From an uncultured Chloroflexia bacterium (GTDB lineage: Bacteria > Chloroflexota > Limnocylindria > Limnocylindrales > CSP1-4), in assembly GCA_963720755.1 (NCBI GenBank), contig CAVRGP010000012.1, positions 1 to 34,168 on the forward strand: a stretch of 34,168 bases of DNA. The letters run 5' to 3'. A program made the translations under genes and the position numbers. Under the pieces are notes generated by a model that was given only the letters and a program-made list of their open reading frames with translations, ran no database searches and was not told where the DNA came from. Positions 11,469-33,020 of the stretch are shown piece by piece. Every line of letters begins with the position of its first letter. Position 1 is the first letter of the stretch.

Positions 11469-12387
11469 CTAGGCGAGGATCGTCCCCCGAGTCGGCAGGA
11501 TTTCGCCGATCCGGTCGAGCACCTCGAGGAAGCCCTGGAGCGGCGGTGGGAGCAGACCGGCTGACGGCCGATGCACTGCCACGATCCGGCGGCGTGTCGG
11601 AGCGACACCGGCGATCGGCACCGCCCGAAGGTCGCCTCGGGCGATGTCGCTGGCGATCGCAGTAAGTGGCAGGAAGGCCACGCCGAGGCCGTCTCTGACC
11701 ATGTGCTTCGCTGCTTCGATGTTGTCGAGTTCGATCGTGCTCCGCGGTACCACCCCGGAGGCCCGGAAGATCGCGTTGGTCAGGTCGTAGTAACTCGACG
11801 TCCGGTCGAAGAGGATCAAGGTCGAAATCCGCGAGACGGTCGACGCCGATCGGATCGGGACCCGCGAATTCATGATGAGCAGGGACGACCAGGATGAGTT
11901 CGTCCTCGTACAGGGGTCGCGCGATCACGCCCGGGCGATGGAGCTCCCGGATGAGCCCGATGTCGAGCTCGTTGCGCTCGACCTGCTCGACGATCTCTTC
12001 CGAATGGCCGGTCCGAACGATGAGTCGAACGCCCTCGAAACGCTGGACGAACCGGGTCAGGATCCCAGGCAGAACGTAGGCGCCGACCGCTGGGGCTGTC
12101 CCGATCGTCAACTGCCCGGTGATCCCTCGGGCGTGCTCACGCACCTGGCCCCGCCCCGCATCCAGGGACTGTATCGCGCGATCCGCGTACGGCATGAAGG
12201 CGCGACCGGCGTTCGTGAGTCGCATCCCTCGATTCGACCGCTCGAACAACGGAGTACCGAGCTCCTCCTCGAGCAGTCTGATGCGTGCCGTGAGCGCGGG
12301 TTGTGTGACGTGCAGGGCCGTCGCTGCCCGGCTCAGGTTTTGTTGACGCGCGATCTCGAGAAAGCCCTCGATCTGGGTGATCAGCAT
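11469..12387 (-). CDS. LysR-family transcriptional regulator (apparent 1-nt frameshift near 11826)
   Basis: HTH NLSRAATALHVTQPALTARIRLLEEELG plus a substrate-binding domain split over two frames. Removing one base of AAA at 11825-11827 gives ..DRLADSTLILFDR.. Confidence 0.9.
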
Positions 12388-25404: not shown

Positions 25405-25531
25405 CGCCTCGATGGTAGTCGTTGGGATAGGCCTCGGCTAAGGAATCGCAAGGCGGGGCCAGTTGTCATCTGGCTCTCAGAAATCGGCCCAAGTCTGGGG
25501 AGACGTCACGCCTGTCAAGAAGGAACTCGCC

Positions 25532-26893
25532 ATGTACGAACCGTTGATCCCGCCCGCCACGCCCGAAGCACCCTCGGCGGGTACCGCCGCGGAACCGACC
25601 GCGCCCATCTGGACGCCGAGCATGTTCGAGGCGCCCGTCGGCGGCCCCACCGTCCCGCCGATGGCTCCGACCCCGGTCAAGCCGGTCGACTCGCCCCCGC
25701 CGCGACGAGGTGTCGGCATCGGGTCCGTGATCGGTGCCGCCGTCCTGGCGGCCGCGCTCGCCTCAGGCGGCACCTACCTTGCCGTCGACGGTGGCCGCCA
25801 GACCAGCCCGCCGAGTGGCGCGACCGCGACCGTGGTCAATGCCCCGGGCACGACCAGCCCCACCGCTCCGGCGGCCACGACCGGCAACAGCACGGATCTG
25901 GTCAACATCGTCAAGGCCGTCAGTCCGGCGGTCGTCACGATCGTCGCCGACGGCATCACCTCGACCGACCCCACGACCGGGCAGACCGGCGTCGGGAGCG
26001 CCACGGGCTCCGGCGTCATCTTCGACTCGAACGGCCTCATCCTCACCAACCGCCACGTCGTCTCCGGCAACCCGCAGAGCCTCACCGTGAACCTGGCGGA
26101 CGGCCGCTCGTTCCCCGCGACCATCTACGGCATCGACACGCTGACCGACCTCGCCATCGTCAAGGTCGACGCGACCGGCCTGCCCACGGCCCCGATCGGT
26201 GACTCGTCGACCATCCAGGTCGGCCAGGAGGCCATCGCCATCGGCAGCCCGCTCGGCACCTTCACGGGTTCCGTGACCAGCGGCATCATCTCGGCCCTCG
26301 GCCGGAGCATCCCGGTCGACAACGAGGTCCTGACCAACCTCATCCAGACCGATACCGCCATCAACCCCGGCAACAGCGGTGGACCGCTGCTCGACCCGAG
26401 CGGCAACGTCATCGGCATCAATACCGCGGGGGCCAGCCAGAGCCAGGGCATCGGGTTCGCGATCCCGATCGACATCGCCCGTCCGCTGCTGGCGCAGGCA
26501 ACGGCCGGCCAGCCCCTGGCCCGACCGTGGCTCGGCATCATGTTCCAGACGATCGATCCCACGATCCAGCAGGCCAACAACCTGCCGGTCGCCAACGGGG
26601 CATGGATCCCGACCGCCGCGGCCATCGCCGCCGAGAACCAGGGCCAGGGCCAGGGTCAGTTCGGCGGGGCACCGCAGGCGTCCGTCGTCGCGGGCAGTCC
26701 AGCCGATCAGGCCGGTCTCCAGCCCGGTGACATCATCACCGCGGTCGACGGGACGACGCTCGACGCGACCCATCCACTCGACATCGTCACGAGCCAGTAC
26801 GGCCCGGGCCAGAGCGTCACGCTCTCGGTCCTCCGCGACGGCCAGACGATCCAGCTCACCGTCGTTCTCGGGACTCGCCCGGCGACCCTGTAG
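25532..26893 (+). CDS. htrA: HtrA/DegP-like membrane-anchored serine protease with one PDZ domain
   Basis: TM helix, LTNRHV, DLAIVK, AINPGNSGGPL and PDZ (PWLGI, GLQPGDII). ATG 25532 follows AAGGAA. Confidence 0.92.
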   Translation: MYEPLIPPATPEAPSAGTAAEPTAPIWTPSMFEAPVGGPTVPPMAPTPVKPVDSPPPRRGVGIGSVIGAAVLAAALASGGTYLAVDGGRQTSPPSGATATVVNAPGTTSPTAPAATTGNSTDLVNIVKAVSPAVVTIVADGITSTDPTTGQTGVGSATGSGVIFDSNGLILTNRHVVSGNPQSLTVNLADGRSFPATIYGIDTLTDLAIVKVDATGLPTAPIGDSSTIQVGQEAIAIGSPLGTFTGSVTSGIISALGRSIPVDNEVLTNLIQTDTAINPGNSGGPLLDPSGNVIGINTAGASQSQGIGFAIPIDIARPLLAQATAGQPLARPWLGIMFQTIDPTIQQANNLPVANGAWIPTAAAIAAENQGQGQGQFGGAPQASVVAGSPADQAGLQPGDIITAVDGTTLDATHPLDIVTSQYGPGQSVTLSVLRDGQTIQLTVVLGTRPATL

Positions 26894-26949: not shown

Positions 26950-27804
26950 ATGTTCGACGACCTCGGTTGGGACGGCCAGCAGGAGGCTCCGGTCGACCCG
27001 GAGCCTCCGGTCGTACCGGAGCCTGTCGCCGAGTCGGAGGCTTCGGCCGACTCGGAGCCGTTCCGCTATCCACCGACGTGTCCGTATCTCGGACTCCCCG
27101 ATGATGCCCGAACCCATTTCTCGTTTGCCGACCCGGCCCACCGCTGCCACGTCAAGGCGAAGCTCGTCCCGATCGACCTGGGCCACCAGGGGTCCTTCTG
27201 CCTGACGCCCCAGTTCCCCGCCTGCAAGCGGTACGTCCCCCCGAAGGCGATCGGCGCGGCGGGCGGCTCGGCGCCGGTCCCCGTTGCCACCTCTGACCCG
27301 CCTGCCGCCGCGCCGGTCGCACCGGTCGCGCCCGTGACGACCGCGACGAAAGGCGCCTGGATGCCGCCGACCGACCCGGGCAAGGGCAGGGGAGTGGGTC
27401 GGCCCGCGGCCCTGGTGGCCGTCCTGGTCGTGCTGGCGCTCGTTGCACTCATCGGCGCGGGATCCTTCACCGATCTCGTGGGCGGCTCGGCTGCGACCGG
27501 AACACCCGAGAGCAGCGTGGAGGTATCGACGCCGCCATCGGCGTCGATCCAGCCCACGGTGTCGACGCCGACCGAGGCGCCGACGGTCGCGCCGACTCAG
27601 GCCCCGGCATCGGAGGCGGCCGCGACATCCGCACCTACGCCGGAGGCGACGGCGACGATCTATGTCGTCGCGCGCGGTGACAGCCTCCTGTCGATCGCCG
27701 CCAGGTTCGGCGTCACGGTGAAGGCGATCCGGAAGGCGAACAACATCACCGACCCGAACCTCATCGTGGTCGGACAGAAGCTGGTGATCCCACTGCCCCG
27801 CTGA
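26950..27804 (+). CDS. Membrane protein: Cys/His-rich N-terminal domain, TM, Pro/Thr linker, LysM
   Basis: CPYLG..HRCH..HQ..FCL..FPACKRY, one TM, and C-terminal YVVARGDSLLSIAARFGV..NNITDPNLIVVGQKLVIP. Confidence 0.88.
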   Translation: MFDDLGWDGQQEAPVDPEPPVVPEPVAESEASADSEPFRYPPTCPYLGLPDDARTHFSFADPAHRCHVKAKLVPIDLGHQGSFCLTPQFPACKRYVPPKAIGAAGGSAPVPVATSDPPAAAPVAPVAPVTTATKGAWMPPTDPGKGRGVGRPAALVAVLVVLALVALIGAGSFTDLVGGSAATGTPESSVEVSTPPSASIQPTVSTPTEAPTVAPTQAPASEAAATSAPTPEATATIYVVARGDSLLSIAARFGVTVKAIRKANNITDPNLIVVGQKLVIPLPR

Positions 27805-27901
27805 CTCACCGGCCTTGTGGCCGGGTGTACGATGGCTCCGCGGAAGGTCTCGGCGTTCTTGACGGGGTCCCGCGAGATCCGTGTGTAACGGAGGGCGCCC
27901 A

Positions 27902-28423
27902 GTGACTCGTCGCAGCAGAATGTTTGCCGGACTCGCAGGTGCGGCTCTGGCCATCGTCATGGCGGCGACGGCCCTCGGCTATGCCGGCCAGGTCCTCGGG
28001 ACGATCACCGTCGCCGGGCCGGGCGGGACCCTCAAGTGCCACACCAACATCACGGTGACGGCAACGCTCCTGGACGTCGGCGGGAAGCCGTTCACTGGCG
28101 AGACCGTCAAGTGGAAGTTCACGTCCACGCCGTCCAGCGCAGACAAGATCAACAAGACGCCCACCACGACGAACAGCGCCGGCGTGACGAAGACCACGGT
28201 CTACCTCGCGTGCGTCGCCGGAAACCGGAAGATCACGGCCACGAGTGCGGGCATGAGCGCCGGCGCGGTCCTGAGCCTCACGGCCGCCGGGTTGCCGCGA
28301 ACGGACACCCTGCCCGGCACTGACCCCGCTGGAGACTTCTCGCTCGGGACGCTCCTGGCTCTGTTGGCGGTCCTCGCCGGTGGCGGCATCATGATCCGCA
28401 GGATCGCGACCAGCCCACGCTGA
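27902..28423 (+). CDS. Secreted Ig-like protein with sortase-type sorting signal (LPRTD-TM-RR)
   Basis: GGAGG RBS plus GTG, signal peptide, Big_1-like strands (ITVTATLLD..G..F.G..V.W..TNSAGV), LPRTD at 28292-28306, hydrophobic helix and RR tail. Confidence 0.8.
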   Translation: MTRRSRMFAGLAGAALAIVMAATALGYAGQVLGTITVAGPGGTLKCHTNITVTATLLDVGGKPFTGETVKWKFTSTPSSADKINKTPTTTNSAGVTKTTVYLACVAGNRKITATSAGMSAGAVLSLTAAGLPRTDTLPGTDPAGDFSLGTLLALLAVLAGGGIMIRRIATSPR

Positions 28424-28456
28424 TCCTCTTCCGCTGAACGCTCGGGATCGCCCAGG

Positions 28457-28478
28457 AACGCGCCCGCCAGGGCGCGTT
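28457..28478 (+). terminator. Hairpin after the sortase-substrate gene
   Basis: AACGCGCCC-gcca-GGGCGCGTT followed by TCC. Confidence 0.55.
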
Positions 28479-28514
28479 TCCGCGTCTGTCACGCGTTCCG
28501 GGTAGTCTCCGCGC

Positions 28515-29225
28515 ATGAGCGAACCGTCCGGCCGCCGCCGTCGCCGCAGGTCGGGCGACCCGGGTTCGTCAAGCTGGACGACGGGCAGGCGACGAGCCTT
28601 CCTGGCGATCGGCGTGGTCGCCGCCATCGTCCTCGCTGCCGCTGGACTGTCGATCGCGCTCGGTGGCGGGGGCGTCACCCCGTCGCAGGTCGCTGATGCT
28701 TCGCCCAGTTCAGGCACGCCCGCCTCCAGCCAGGCGACCTTCAGTTTCCCCCCAGTCGGCTCGCCCATAGCGACGAGCCCCAGCCCGAGCCAGGACGCCA
28801 CCCCCGTCTCGACACCCAGCCCGGTTCCCGGCAAGGCGATCAGGGCGAACCGGATCCAGATCGATCGGCTCGGCATCGACCTCAAGATCGTCGAGGGTGA
28901 CGGCATCGATGCGCCGATGGGCAAGGCCGCGCACTATCCGGGGACCGGCTGGCCCGGCGGCGGGACGAACATCTACATCTACGGCCACGCCCAGACCGGG
29001 ATGTTCCTCTCGCTCTGGGACGTGAAGGTCGGCGACGTCGTCGTGCTGACCCTCGTCGATGGCTCGCAGCGGTCGTACACGGTCGCAAAGATCATCCCCA
29101 AGGCTCCATGGGACGCGATCCAGTACCTCGACCCGACGCCGAAGGAGCAGCTCACCCTCCAGACGTCGACGTCGTACCACCCGACCTCGCCCCGCTTCGT
29201 CGTCATCGCCTTCCCGACCCCGTGA
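28515..29225 (+). CDS. Sortase-family protein with Ser at the catalytic Cys position
   Basis: N-terminal TM, Ser/Pro linker, RIQI..LGID..IVEG, HYPGT..PG..N..IYGH, F..L..VKVGD, LTLQTS and conserved R in PRFVV. Confidence 0.88.
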   Translation: MSEPSGRRRRRRSGDPGSSSWTTGRRRAFLAIGVVAAIVLAAAGLSIALGGGGVTPSQVADASPSSGTPASSQATFSFPPVGSPIATSPSPSQDATPVSTPSPVPGKAIRANRIQIDRLGIDLKIVEGDGIDAPMGKAAHYPGTGWPGGGTNIYIYGHAQTGMFLSLWDVKVGDVVVLTLVDGSQRSYTVAKIIPKAPWDAIQYLDPTPKEQLTLQTSTSYHPTSPRFVVIAFPTP

Positions 29226-31308
29226 CCGAGTCCCCGAACGACCCGGAGCCGCCCCAGACCGAGGTGGCGTCGCCACCGACCGCCGTGTCGCCACCGACCG
29301 GCGCGGCCTCGACCGACGGCCCCCATCGCCATCGCCGACGCCGCCGGACGAGCCACCGCCGCCGGAACATCCTGGCGGGGACCGGGCTGGCGTTGCTGGT
29401 CCTCGTCGTCGCGGGCGGCCTGCTGGCGGCCCTCCGCTACCTCCCGGCGCTGGACGATGCGAAGGCGCTCCGGACCGATCTCGAAGCGATGGCGTCCCGG
29501 GCGCAGGCCGCCGGTCTCGCGATCGATCAGCCGACGCTGGACGGACTCGATGCGGACCTGACCGCCGCCCGGGGCCGCCTCGATCGGTTGGCCGGCCTGC
29601 TCGCCGACGACCCGCTCGTTGCCGTCGCGCGCGTCTTCCCGCCCACCTCCGCCAACGTGCAGGGCGCCGATGCCGTCGTCGCGGCCGCCACGGACCTGTT
29701 CGATGCGGCCGAGCAGGGCCTCGCCATCGGGGGTCGATTCGTCGCGATCAAGGAGGCGCAGGCGGCCGATCCGGCGACGGCCTCCGCCCTGTCCCAACTC
29801 GTCGAGCTGATGGCCACCTCACGGGACCAGGCCGTGGCCGCGCAGGCGGCCCTGGCCCGGGCCCAGGAGACGCTGGCGACCATCCCGGATGGGCTGGTCG
29901 GTCCCGTGGGCGGCGCGCGCGACGCGATGATCGAGCGGGTCGACAAGTACGGCCCGCTGCTCGACTCGTACGTCACGGCCAGCGCCCGCCTGCCGGCGAT
30001 CCTCGGCTGGGACGCCCCGCGCCGGTATCTCGTCCTGACCCAGAACCCGGCGGAGCTGCGGCCGACCGGCGGCTACATCGGCAGCTACGGGATCATCGCC
30101 TTCGACAAGGGCCGGATCACGGAGCGGACCTTCCGGGACATCTTCCTGCTGGATCTTCCCTGGGACTACCCGTTCATCACGCCACCCACGGAGCTCGCGG
30201 ACTACCTGCTCGGCCCCACCCAGCCCTGGCAACTGGCGGACGCGAACTGGTCGCCGGACTTCCCGACGAGCGCGCAGGACGCCGTCCGGCTGTACGCGAA
30301 TGAGTCCGGCGACACGAAGATCGATGGGGTCCTCGGGATCACGACCTACACGATCGATGCGCTGCTCAAGGTGACCGGTCCGGTCACCGTTCCGGACTAC
30401 GAGGTGACGATCGCGTCGGGGGAGACGACCCTCAAGACCCTCCAGCTCACCCGCGTCGCGCAGGATCCGGCCGACAACCGCAAGGCGTTCCTGTCGGCGT
30501 TCGCGGACCAGCTGTTCGGCACGCTGCTCAGCCTCCCTCCGGCGAAATGGGGCGACCTCCTCGGCGAGGCGAGCACGTTCCAGTCGCAGCGGCTGCTCCT
30601 CGCCTGGTTCAAGGATGCCGCCGACGAATCGCTGGTGACGCAGGGTGGGTTCGGCGGCGAGGTCCGTCAGGACGAGGGCGACTATCTCTACCCCGTCGAT
30701 TCGAACGTGGCACCTGCCTCCAAGATCAACGCGATCGCGACACGCTCGCTCAAGCTGGACGTCGAGATCGACGACTCGGCAACGCCCGGGACACCCTCGA
30801 CGTGACCTGGCAGAACCCGATCGATACCGCGATCGGCAAGCCGTACCGCGAGCTGCCGACCCTGGAGAACCTCAGGATCCTGGGGATGTATTTCCGGGCC
30901 CTGACACCGGATCGGAGCCGGGTGGAGTCCGTGTCGGGCGGCAGCTTCGTGCAGCTCACCTCGCCGGCCGAGGTGGGCGTGGAGGCCGGCCGGACCGTCA
31001 TCGGCGCATACATGGCCGTGCCCCCCGGTCAGGCCAGCCTCCGGTACAGCTGGACCAGCCCGTATGCCGCCGACGCCGACGAGACCGGCGGCGTCTACCG
31101 GCTGACGATCCAGAAACAGCCCGGCCTCCTGCCCGGCCCGCTGTCCCTCACGATCCGCGTTCCGGAGGGCTTCCGGATCACGAACGCGAGTGATGGCCTG
31201 ACGGTCACCGGGCGGACCGCGACCCTCGACACGACGTTCACCCAGGACATCGAGCTGGGTCTCAGCTACGCACCAACGACGGCTCCGACACCGACCGCGC
31301 CGCAGTAG
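29222..31308 (+). CDS. DUF4012 domain protein (apparent 1-nt frameshift near 30775)
   Basis: GTGA coupling to the sortase stop, TM, long helical region and YLVLTQNPAELRPTGG..DANWSPDFPTSA motifs. The C-terminal part (Y.LTIQKQPG) is in the next frame. Confidence 0.82.
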
Positions 31309-31395: not shown

Positions 31396-33020
31396 GTGGA
31401 GCTTCGCCAGCAGTTCAACGTGATGCGCTCCTGGTTCTGGCTCATCGTCGCGGCCATCCTGCTGGCCGGCGGTACGGCCTTCCTGGTGTCCAGTGCCCTG
31501 CCCAAGTCGTACGAAAGCACCGCGACGCTGATCGTCGGCCAGAGCATCCAGTCGGCGAACCCGGACTACAACCAGCTCCTGACCAGCCAGCGGTTGTCGC
31601 AGACCTACGCGGACCTCGCGACGACGACGCCGCTCCTCGAATCGGTCATCGAGCAGAACGGCCTGACCGTGACGCCCGATGAGTTCCGCAACTTCGTCTC
31701 GGCCGATGCGCCGCGCGACTCCACCCTCGTCCATCTCACGGTCAAGGACGGCGACCCGGTGCAGGCGGCGACCCTCGCGAACTCGCTTGCGGCGGAGATG
31801 ATCGCGGCCTCACCGGCGATCGCGGGGCGCGACTCGAGTGTCCAGCAATTCATCGATGCGGACCTGGCCGCCATCCAGGCCCAGATCGAGAGCACCCAGG
31901 CGGAGATCACCCGGCTCACCAACCTGCCGGCTCGCACCGCGGCGGAGGAGCTCCAGCTGCAGGCGCTCCAAGGCCGGATCGTGACGCTCCGGCAGACGTA
32001 TGCGACCACCCTCGGCTTCTCCAGCAGCAACGGCGCGAACCTGCTGACCGTCGTGAACCCAGCCACCCCGCCGGAGGCTGCCGCATCGCCGAGGGTCCTG
32101 CTCAATACGATGCTCGCCGCGCTTGGTCGGGCTGCTCCTGGCGCTCGGTTTCGTGTTCGTCCTGGAGCATCTCGACGACACGGTCAAGTCCAACGCCGAT
32201 GTCGAGGCGGTCACCGGCCTGCCGACGCTCGGGACGATCGTCAAGATGCGCGCCAACAAGGGCCAGAAGGAGATCTACCGGCTCGCGACCATCCTGTACC
32301 CGAGGGCGCCGGCGGCCGAGGCGTATCGGACCCTCCGGTCCAACGTGGAATTCGCCGCCGTGGACGCGCCGGTCAAGACGCTGCTCGTCACCAGCTCCAT
32401 CCCCGGCGAAGGCAAGACGACGACCGCGGCCAACCTTGCGGTCGTGTTCGCGCAGGATGGCCGCCGGACGATCCTGGTCGACGCGGACTTCCGCAAGCCC
32501 GGCGTCCACAAGATCTTCGACCTCCCGAACGCCGAGGGGCTGTCCAGCCTCCTGCGGACGGACGACGTCGAGATGGACCACGTCGCCCAGGCCACGGAGC
32601 AGGAGAACCTGCGGGTGATCACGACGGGACCGCTCCCGCCCAATCCGTCCGAACTGCTCGGGTCGCAACGCATGCGCCTGATCCTGGAGCGGCTTGTCAG
32701 CTCGTCGGACCTCGTCATCATCGATAGCCCGCCGCTCCAGGCCGTCACGGATGCGGCCATCCTCGCCGCGATTGCCGATGGCACGCTCTTCGTGATCGAC
32801 GCCGGCCGGACCCGCCGCGGCGCCGTCGAAAGCGGACGGGAGGCGCTGGCCAAGGCCGACGCCCGCACCCTCGGCGCGGCGCTCAACCGGATCCCGGAGC
32901 GGTCCAACGGCGGCTACGTCTACTACGACTACTACGGCGGCTATGGCGCCGGAGCGGCGAGATGGCTCGGCTGCCAAGGGCCAATCTGCGCAGGCTCCGT
33001 ACGCCGAAAAGCCAGGGTGA
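31396..33020 (+). CDS. Polysaccharide co-polymerase / BY tyrosine autokinase (Wzc/CpsCD-like), apparent frameshifts near 32123 and 32958
   Basis: Wzz N-domain (PKSYESTATLIV), TM2, AEAYRTLRSN, PGEGKTT, LVDAD, IIDSPP and Tyr cluster YVYYDYYGGY. Likely stop TGA 33018-33020. Confidence 0.85.

Follow-up and report, generated by a model that had tools for sequence, protein, structure and literature searches.

The 34,168-nucleotide contig CAVRGP010000012.1 of an uncultured Chloroflexota bacterium (analysed over its full length and hereafter called the window) encodes a sortase-fold protein in which a serine, Ser218, stands at the position of the catalytic cysteine. Sortases are the textbook cysteine transpeptidases and are widely used as protein-ligation tools; to our knowledge, every characterised sortase depends on its Cys thiol. 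Alignments and a phylogeny of the window protein's relatives indicate that the Ser-for-Cys replacement is a class-wide, recurrently arising trait of the family and not a single odd gene, and we regard the protein as probably an active sortase with a Ser-His-Arg active site that works through an oxyester. The original prediction, made from the letters of the window, had left a choice between a Ser-nucleophile enzyme and a catalytically dead sortase. That choice still holds, with the catalytic branch now favoured; the recurrence of the trait throughout the class had been missed.

The gene and the parts of its product discussed below are as follows.

28515..29225, + strand: Ser-type sortase gene, an open reading frame (ORF) of 236 amino acids plus stop, with a match to Pfam PF04203 (62.2 bits).
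28515..28598, + strand: Arg-rich N-terminal tail, residues 1-28 (RRRRRR and RRR), presumably cytoplasmic by the positive-inside rule.
28599..28661, + strand: predicted single membrane anchor, residues 29-49 (FLAIG...SIAL), an uncharged hydrophobic stretch of 21 residues located by eye.
28662..28835, + strand: Pro/Ser/Thr-rich linker, residues 50-107, outside the Pfam match (residues 114-232).
28836..29222, + strand: sortase catalytic domain, residues 108-236, defined by the Pfam match, a profile match to solved sortases and a ratio of nonsynonymous to synonymous substitution rates (dN/dS) of 0.10.
28986..28988, + strand: codon of His158 (IYGH, residues 155-158), the predicted general base, invariant in the alignment and lying under the sortase GH motif.
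29166..29168, + strand: codon TCG of Ser218 (LQTS, residues 215-218), at the catalytic Cys position of TLxTC.
29193..29195, + strand: codon of Arg227 (PRFVV, residues 226-230), the conserved sortase Arg, aligned to the catalytic Arg of solved sortases.

The Pfam match has an E value of 5.1e-17, and its score exceeds the family cut-off of 26.6 bits. An alignment of 148 Ser and Cys forms, termed A1, was used as a profile against solved structures; 62 solved sortase sequences matched it at E <= 1e-5, with the class C sortase 8t28_A scoring best (E 7.5e-26), and it reached class C, A and D structures with E values of 1e-26 to 1e-19. In these profile alignments the family's His coincides with the GH motif, the Ser/Cys column with the C of TLVTC and the Arg with the catalytic Arg of the solved enzymes, from which it follows that Ser218 occupies the exact slot of the nucleophilic Cys. 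His158 is the only invariant column among the 148 A1 sequences, and Arg227 is retained in at least 90% of the rows. The NCBIfam class models all score below their cut-offs (class E, 26.4 versus 160; class D, 26.1 versus 165; class C, 24.6 versus 160; class F, 16.9 versus 166), and the best NCBIfam model, the general sortase model TIGR01076, reaches 36.4 bits against an unmet cut-off of 39.35. The protein thus belongs to no named sortase class. A residue check and the Pfam match together bear out the predicted scaffold, with His158, Arg227 and Ser218 (TCG) in place and no Cys, and the sequence confirms that TCG is two changes away from either Cys codon. That none of the 236 residues is Cys is by itself unremarkable for a genome of this kind; what stands out is the Ser at the nucleophile position. 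As aligned, the protein is a member of the sortase fold that fails the family's defining chemical feature, a Cys nucleophile.

A word-indexed homologue search returned 629 matches at E <= 1e-3, and the best 120 were kept for tallies. At the nucleophile, 112 of these 120 homologues have Ser and 8 have Cys, with no third residue; the motif reads LTLQTS in 111, LSIQTS in 1 and LTLQTC in 8. Since 107 of the 120 are without any Cys, no substitute thiol is present in those proteins. Over the 129-codon domain, dN/dS was 0.099 (dN 0.05, dS 0.51) relative to L035, the nearest DNA relative at 90% identity. Values of 0.24-0.40 against more distant relatives carry little weight, as dS there (0.6-1.4) is near saturation. 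Selection on the sortase domain is purifying and, because the homologues are mostly Ser and dN/dS is low, Ser218 reflects neither decay nor error. The original prediction had held that the gene is not simply decaying and encodes a Ser-nucleophile enzyme or a dead sortase, and had named close homologues uniformly with Cys, together with relaxed selection on this copy, as what would refute it; with close homologues mostly Ser and selection purifying, it came through that test.

One of the in-class sortases (L010, on G098:C3) matches in two pieces, an open frame corresponding to query residues 54-210 and a separate match that holds the TLQTS...R end. The split points to a frameshift or a pseudogene in G098, or to an error in its assembly.

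The extent of exchange between Cys and Ser was examined in a broader set of sequences. An exhaustive search of 1.84 billion representatives gave 1830 matches at E <= 1e-3, and the best 150 after 50% clustering were aligned together with the query (151 rows). The nucleophile column contains Cys in 80 rows, Ser in 53, a gap in 9 and another residue in 9; the last 9 rows are fragmentary, very long or poorly aligned. In this unfiltered alignment, His158 is kept in 45 of 48 non-gap Ser rows and 79 of 79 non-gap Cys rows, Thr217 in 52 of 53 Ser rows and 77 of 80 Cys rows, and Arg227 in 42 of 53 Ser rows (the others having Glu in 6, Lys in 4 and Ala in 1) and 79 of 80 Cys rows. Gln216 is kept in 52 of 53 Ser rows and 35 of 80 Cys rows, a contrast confounded with phylogeny.

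For the phylogeny, 118 domain rows (41 Ser) were used; the 33 of 151 rows left out were fragments, very long, without the His, or had neither Ser nor Cys as nucleophile. The His filter applied before tree building removes some Ser rows that lack His, and the residue-retention figures above were taken from all 151 rows. With the nucleophile column masked, the tree contains 9 Cys/Ser changes, at least 5 of which are forced by well-supported branches; an earlier tree that included the column gave 8 changes. A single clade of all 41 Ser rows is rejected by the approximately unbiased (AU) test (log-likelihood difference 241, p 6.8e-6). No column systematically tracks the swap among the 74 QT[S/C] rows (40 Ser, 34 Cys). 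The closest pair, P0056 (Cys) and P0074 (Ser), differs at 2 of 129 domain residues and is 94% identical overall, and the remaining 7 Cys forms among the best 120 homologues are 76-93% identical to their nearest Ser form. Judged by the divergence of P0056 and P0074, one switch between Cys and Ser is very recent.

Within the class of the window's organism, 134 of 151 sampled genomes contained a match at E <= 1e-5; this tally takes in the unpublished genomes G106, G112, G067, G096 and G123. Among the best 30 in-class loci (L004-L033), the nucleophile column of the tblastn alignments is Ser in 29, including L020 from G106, and Cys in 1 (L008). The codon could be read in 28 of the 30 loci, L010 and L028 having escaped the motif search, and is TCG in 23, TCC in 4 and TGC in 1 (L008). 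None of the 27 Ser codons read is AGY, so that every one lies on the one-step path between TGC and TCC. Elsewhere in the phylum, 53 of 301 sampled genomes had a match at E <= 1e-8, a tally that takes in the unpublished G393, from which no sequence was drawn. The 20 regions retrieved from 19 out-of-class genomes all encode Cys, 16 as read from the tblastn column and 4 from translation. Scans of genome and metagenome contig collections returned 1 and 6 loci, respectively.

The window is contig C12 of genome G000 (3.0 Mb, 15 contigs, 93.6% complete), which contains three sortase-fold genes: the Ser218 form, a Cys form (L002) and a divergent Ser form (L003). L002 (G000 C13:11576-12064) is a canonical Cys sortase of 186 amino acids with the motif ITLQTC (Pfam, 62.5 bits) and coexists with the two Ser forms. 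L003 (G000 C2:149368-150009) is a second, divergent Ser paralogue with the motif LWLQTS and a Lys at the Arg position, and its Pfam score of 23.1 bits is below the cut-off; its orthologues L055 and L056, in two genomes of the same genus, read LWLQTSEG...GKTQVIA. Close orthologues of the Ser218 form are patchy, with a strong match in 1 of the 9 other genomes of the window's own genus.

Distinct Ser types occur in two further families within the class, both with genomes in which no other sortase was matched. In family f3 the motif is TLQTSTGPNxxDPRF; in family f4 (L051-L054, L058-L062) it is TLQTSQG[FY]NRNWGE[FL], where Glu takes the place of the Arg and the motif is preceded by an extra segment. 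In all 5 f3 genomes examined (91-97% complete) and all 5 f4 genomes examined (88-98% complete, 1-7 contigs), the Ser form was the sole Pfam sortase match.

A candidate substrate is encoded directly upstream of the window's sortase gene.

27881..28423, + strand: predicted substrate, a small Ig-like (Big_1-like) surface protein of 180 amino acids; its Big_1 score of 28.5 bits is below the 34.9 cut-off.
28292..28306, + strand: LPRTD sorting motif, substrate residues 138-142, followed by a hydrophobic stretch and RRIATSPR.

That an adjacent ORF encodes a substrate had been part of the original prediction, and the ORF indeed ends in LPRTD, a hydrophobic stretch and a basic tail. A homologue of this protein lies directly upstream of the sortase gene, each with a sorting signal, in 12 of 12 loci for which upstream sequence was available (L004-L010, L034, L035 and L038-L040; L036 and L037 start at a contig edge). 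The signal consensus across related loci is LP[RNS]T[SD][TV], and a Big_1-like domain was found in 6 of 6 upstream neighbours tested. The Cys-type locus L008 has an equal substrate type and signal (LPNTST).

Sorting signals were also sought in the f3 genomes with only a Ser form. The model TIGR01167 is unspecific (14 of 14 control genomes matched at E <= 1) and was used only to nominate candidates, which were kept if the C-terminus showed a motif, a hydrophobic stretch and a basic tail. One or more such proteins, in which LPST[STAG]x is followed by a membrane stretch and a basic tail, are encoded in each of the 5 f3 genomes (three in G016; one each in G133, G034, G022 and G004). These include an 856-amino-acid adhesin-type protein with SdrD_B/SpaA domains and, from the gene immediately upstream of the sortase, an Ice_binding-like protein. 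No sorting-signal gene was seen next to the L003-type or f4 Ser forms at the loci examined. In the window's own genome, four proteins have a C-terminus in which APPTD is followed by a hydrophobic stretch and an Arg-rich tail (L103, G000 C6:243000-247000; L104 and L105, G000 C15); two are in tandem and one contains DUF4397. APPTD is a possible second sorting motif in this genome.

From these observations we infer chemical steps, a cleavage site and an acceptor for the window protein as follows. The single N-terminal membrane helix would anchor the sortase with its catalytic domain outside the cell, where it would recognise the C-terminal LPRTD signal of the Ig-like protein whose gene lies immediately upstream. 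With His158 as its general base and Arg227 stabilising the transition state, Ser218 would attack the Thr carbonyl, and the resulting acyl-enzyme would be an oxyester instead of a thioester. An amine, presumably from a cell-wall precursor or the lysine of another protein, would then resolve the oxyester and leave the protein attached. The catalytic branch is favoured because only Ser and Cys are found at the site, because His and Arg are retained, and because signals are kept in genomes that have no sortase other than the Ser form. The Ser-only lineages keep canonical sorting signals on typical surface proteins, and that Ser218 works as the nucleophile is the simplest reading.

Several observations weigh against catalysis by the Ser form. 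The 148 sequences of A1 share no acidic residue at an invariant position with which a classical triad could be completed. Arg is lost in 11 of 53 Ser rows compared with 1 of 80 Cys rows, which could reflect relaxed catalytic constraint in some Ser lineages. The Ser-only genomes are metagenome-assembled and 88-98% complete, so a Cys sortase could have been missed. Finally, the corresponding C184S substitution in S. aureus SrtA lowers activity 'dramatically', according to a passage of PMC4827206 that cites another paper.

These points bear on two alternatives to an active sortase, both of which we consider unlikely. The Ser form could be a Ser-dependent processing peptidase in which water resolves the oxyester, so that the Ig-like protein is trimmed or released without attachment to the wall. 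All of the evidence for catalysis fits such a peptidase equally well, and by general chemistry amines attack an oxyester less readily than a thioester. The substrates, however, keep the full tripartite signal (motif, membrane stretch and basic tail) by which proteins are retained for attachment to the wall, and Cys and Ser alleles have a common substrate type and cassette (L008 versus L004-L007). Transpeptidation by Ser is moreover well established in penicillin-binding proteins.

Alternatively, the protein could be a pseudo-sortase with no catalytic activity that serves as a chaperone, scaffold or retention factor by binding the sorting signal, an explanation we hold to be improbable. It would be in keeping with the reported impairment of engineered C184S SrtA (PMC4827206, in the same passage), with the additional loss of Arg in some Ser lineages, and with the f4 and L003-type forms, which have no adjacent substrate. 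A dead site should drift, yet the best 120 homologues show only Ser or Cys; Ala, Thr, Pro and Leu, each one base from TCG or TCC, are unseen. Constraint also extends to the surrounding residues: His158 is invariant in A1, in which Ser and Cys forms stand together, and Thr217 and Gln216 are each kept in all but one of the 53 Ser rows. In all 10 genomes checked, furthermore, the Ser form is the sole sortase, and sorting signals are kept in the 5 f3 genomes among them that were tested for such signals. An error of sequencing or assembly, or a pseudogene inactivated only recently, is effectively refuted: the window does come from a metagenome-type assembly, and public contigs (3 soil-metagenome runs, one study) leave 28934-29311, and hence the codon, uncovered, but TCG is two changes from TGC/TGT, Ser is also present in 112 of the 120 homologue clusters, which are independent, and at 29 of the best 30 loci of the class, and the frame is intact with a dN/dS of 0.10.

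Comparison with known systems sets the active Ser sortase that we favour in context. The window protein resembles canonical sortases (MEROPS C60, PF04203; classes A-F) in its fold, its predicted N-terminal anchor and the positions of its His, TLxT and Arg, and in its adjacently encoded substrate, which combines an LPxT-type motif with a membrane stretch and a basic tail. It differs in its Ser nucleophile, in the Gln of TLQT[S/C] and the YxY[AG]HA[RQ] motif of its subfamily, and in the subfamily signal, which is LPxT[S/D]T where canonical sortases use LPxTG. The Cys-type members of the TLQT[S/C] subfamily (L002, L008, P0056, P0125) are up to 98% identical in the domain and differ in the nucleophile alone; L008 has the same cassette of LysM protein, Big_1 substrate, sortase and DUF4012 protein as the Ser types. 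Penicillin-binding DD-transpeptidases, whose fold and substrates are unrelated, offer a functional analogy only, as they carry out cell-wall transpeptidation via a serine ester acyl-enzyme.

The engineered C184S mutant of S. aureus SrtA carries the identical substitution at the identical catalytic position and has been used as a 'cys-less' scaffold (PMC5578623, in the legend of a supporting-information figure). The laboratory mutant is reported to be strongly impaired, whereas the Ser form described here is natural, conserved and often the sole sortase of its genome. A conserved Ser-for-Cys replacement at the nucleophile is described as rare but recurrent and poorly explored in the papain-like superfamily (in a passage of PMC10318531). 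Those families belong to a different fold and clan, and that passage names the sortase fold merely among cysteine-peptidase scaffolds. No description of a natural Ser-type sortase was found in the full-text literature, with subscription journals and supplementary files lying outside the search.

The sortase gene and its predicted substrate belong to a conserved cassette, the remaining elements of which in the window are as follows.

26950..27804, + strand: LysM-domain protein gene (PF01476, 58.6 bits), the first gene of the cassette.
28455..28480, + strand: 11-bp perfect G+C-rich hairpin found by folding, within the 91-nucleotide spacer between substrate and sortase genes (whole spacer, z = -1.9).
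29222..30805, + strand: DUF4012 gene (PF13196, 109.7 bits), with a likely GTG start at 29222, in frame and on the sortase stop (GTGA).

The conserved order is LysM protein, substrate, sortase and DUF4012 protein, with the DUF4012 gene downstream of the sortase in 11 loci and the LysM gene upstream in 5 (L005, L007, L009, L034 and L035). The overlap of the GTG at 29222 with the sortase stop suggests coupled translation, and the DUF4012 protein may be a functional partner of the cassette. The terminator scan passed over the 28455-28480 hairpin, which has no T run; the hairpin is possibly an attenuator and might lower read-through into the sortase gene. The original prediction had also given the sortase gene its own promoter, and this part was not reproduced: a consensus scan found 0 sigma-70-like sites in 27700-29400, a result that does not demonstrate absence because non-canonical promoters fall outside the scan.

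Farther upstream, an HtrA-like protease with Trypsin_2 and PDZ domains is encoded at 25463-26893, just before the LysM gene. Going by their domain content, this protease, the LysM protein and a Wzz-domain ORF beginning at 31396 make up a cell-envelope neighbourhood. The Wzz match in ORF 31396-32727 covers only residues 2-87, and the last ~200 residues are rich in Arg, Gly and Pro, like out-of-frame reads at 69% G+C; this ORF may contain a frameshift or have been wrongly extended. A 105-amino-acid ORF tail is identical on C12 (window ~11470-11790) and C5 (in an ORF ending at 37459), a repeat common to both contigs.

Taken together, the evidence from sequence comparison tilts toward a broader conclusion, that a whole Chloroflexota class (probably Limnocylindria) has exchanged thiol for hydroxyl chemistry in sorting proteins to its cell wall. 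Ser and Cys would then be interchangeable nucleophiles that switched at least 5 times and segregate between near-identical orthologues, and these proteins would be the first natural serine sortases and cysteine-free oxyester ligases. If this is true, a natural Ser sortase shows that the fold supports a second nucleophile, and the sortase clan, like the trypsin-like and papain-like folds, is of mixed catalytic type. Natural Cys/Ser pairs such as P0056 and P0074, two domain residues apart, are an ideal system for asking how a Ser could work where C184S SrtA is reportedly impaired. Ligases that contain no thiol and are insensitive to oxidation, with LPxT[S/D]T or LPSTST as a new recognition motif, would also become possible. 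For the organisms themselves, the finding is relevant to the display of surface proteins in a soil and freshwater lineage that is abundant and uncultured.

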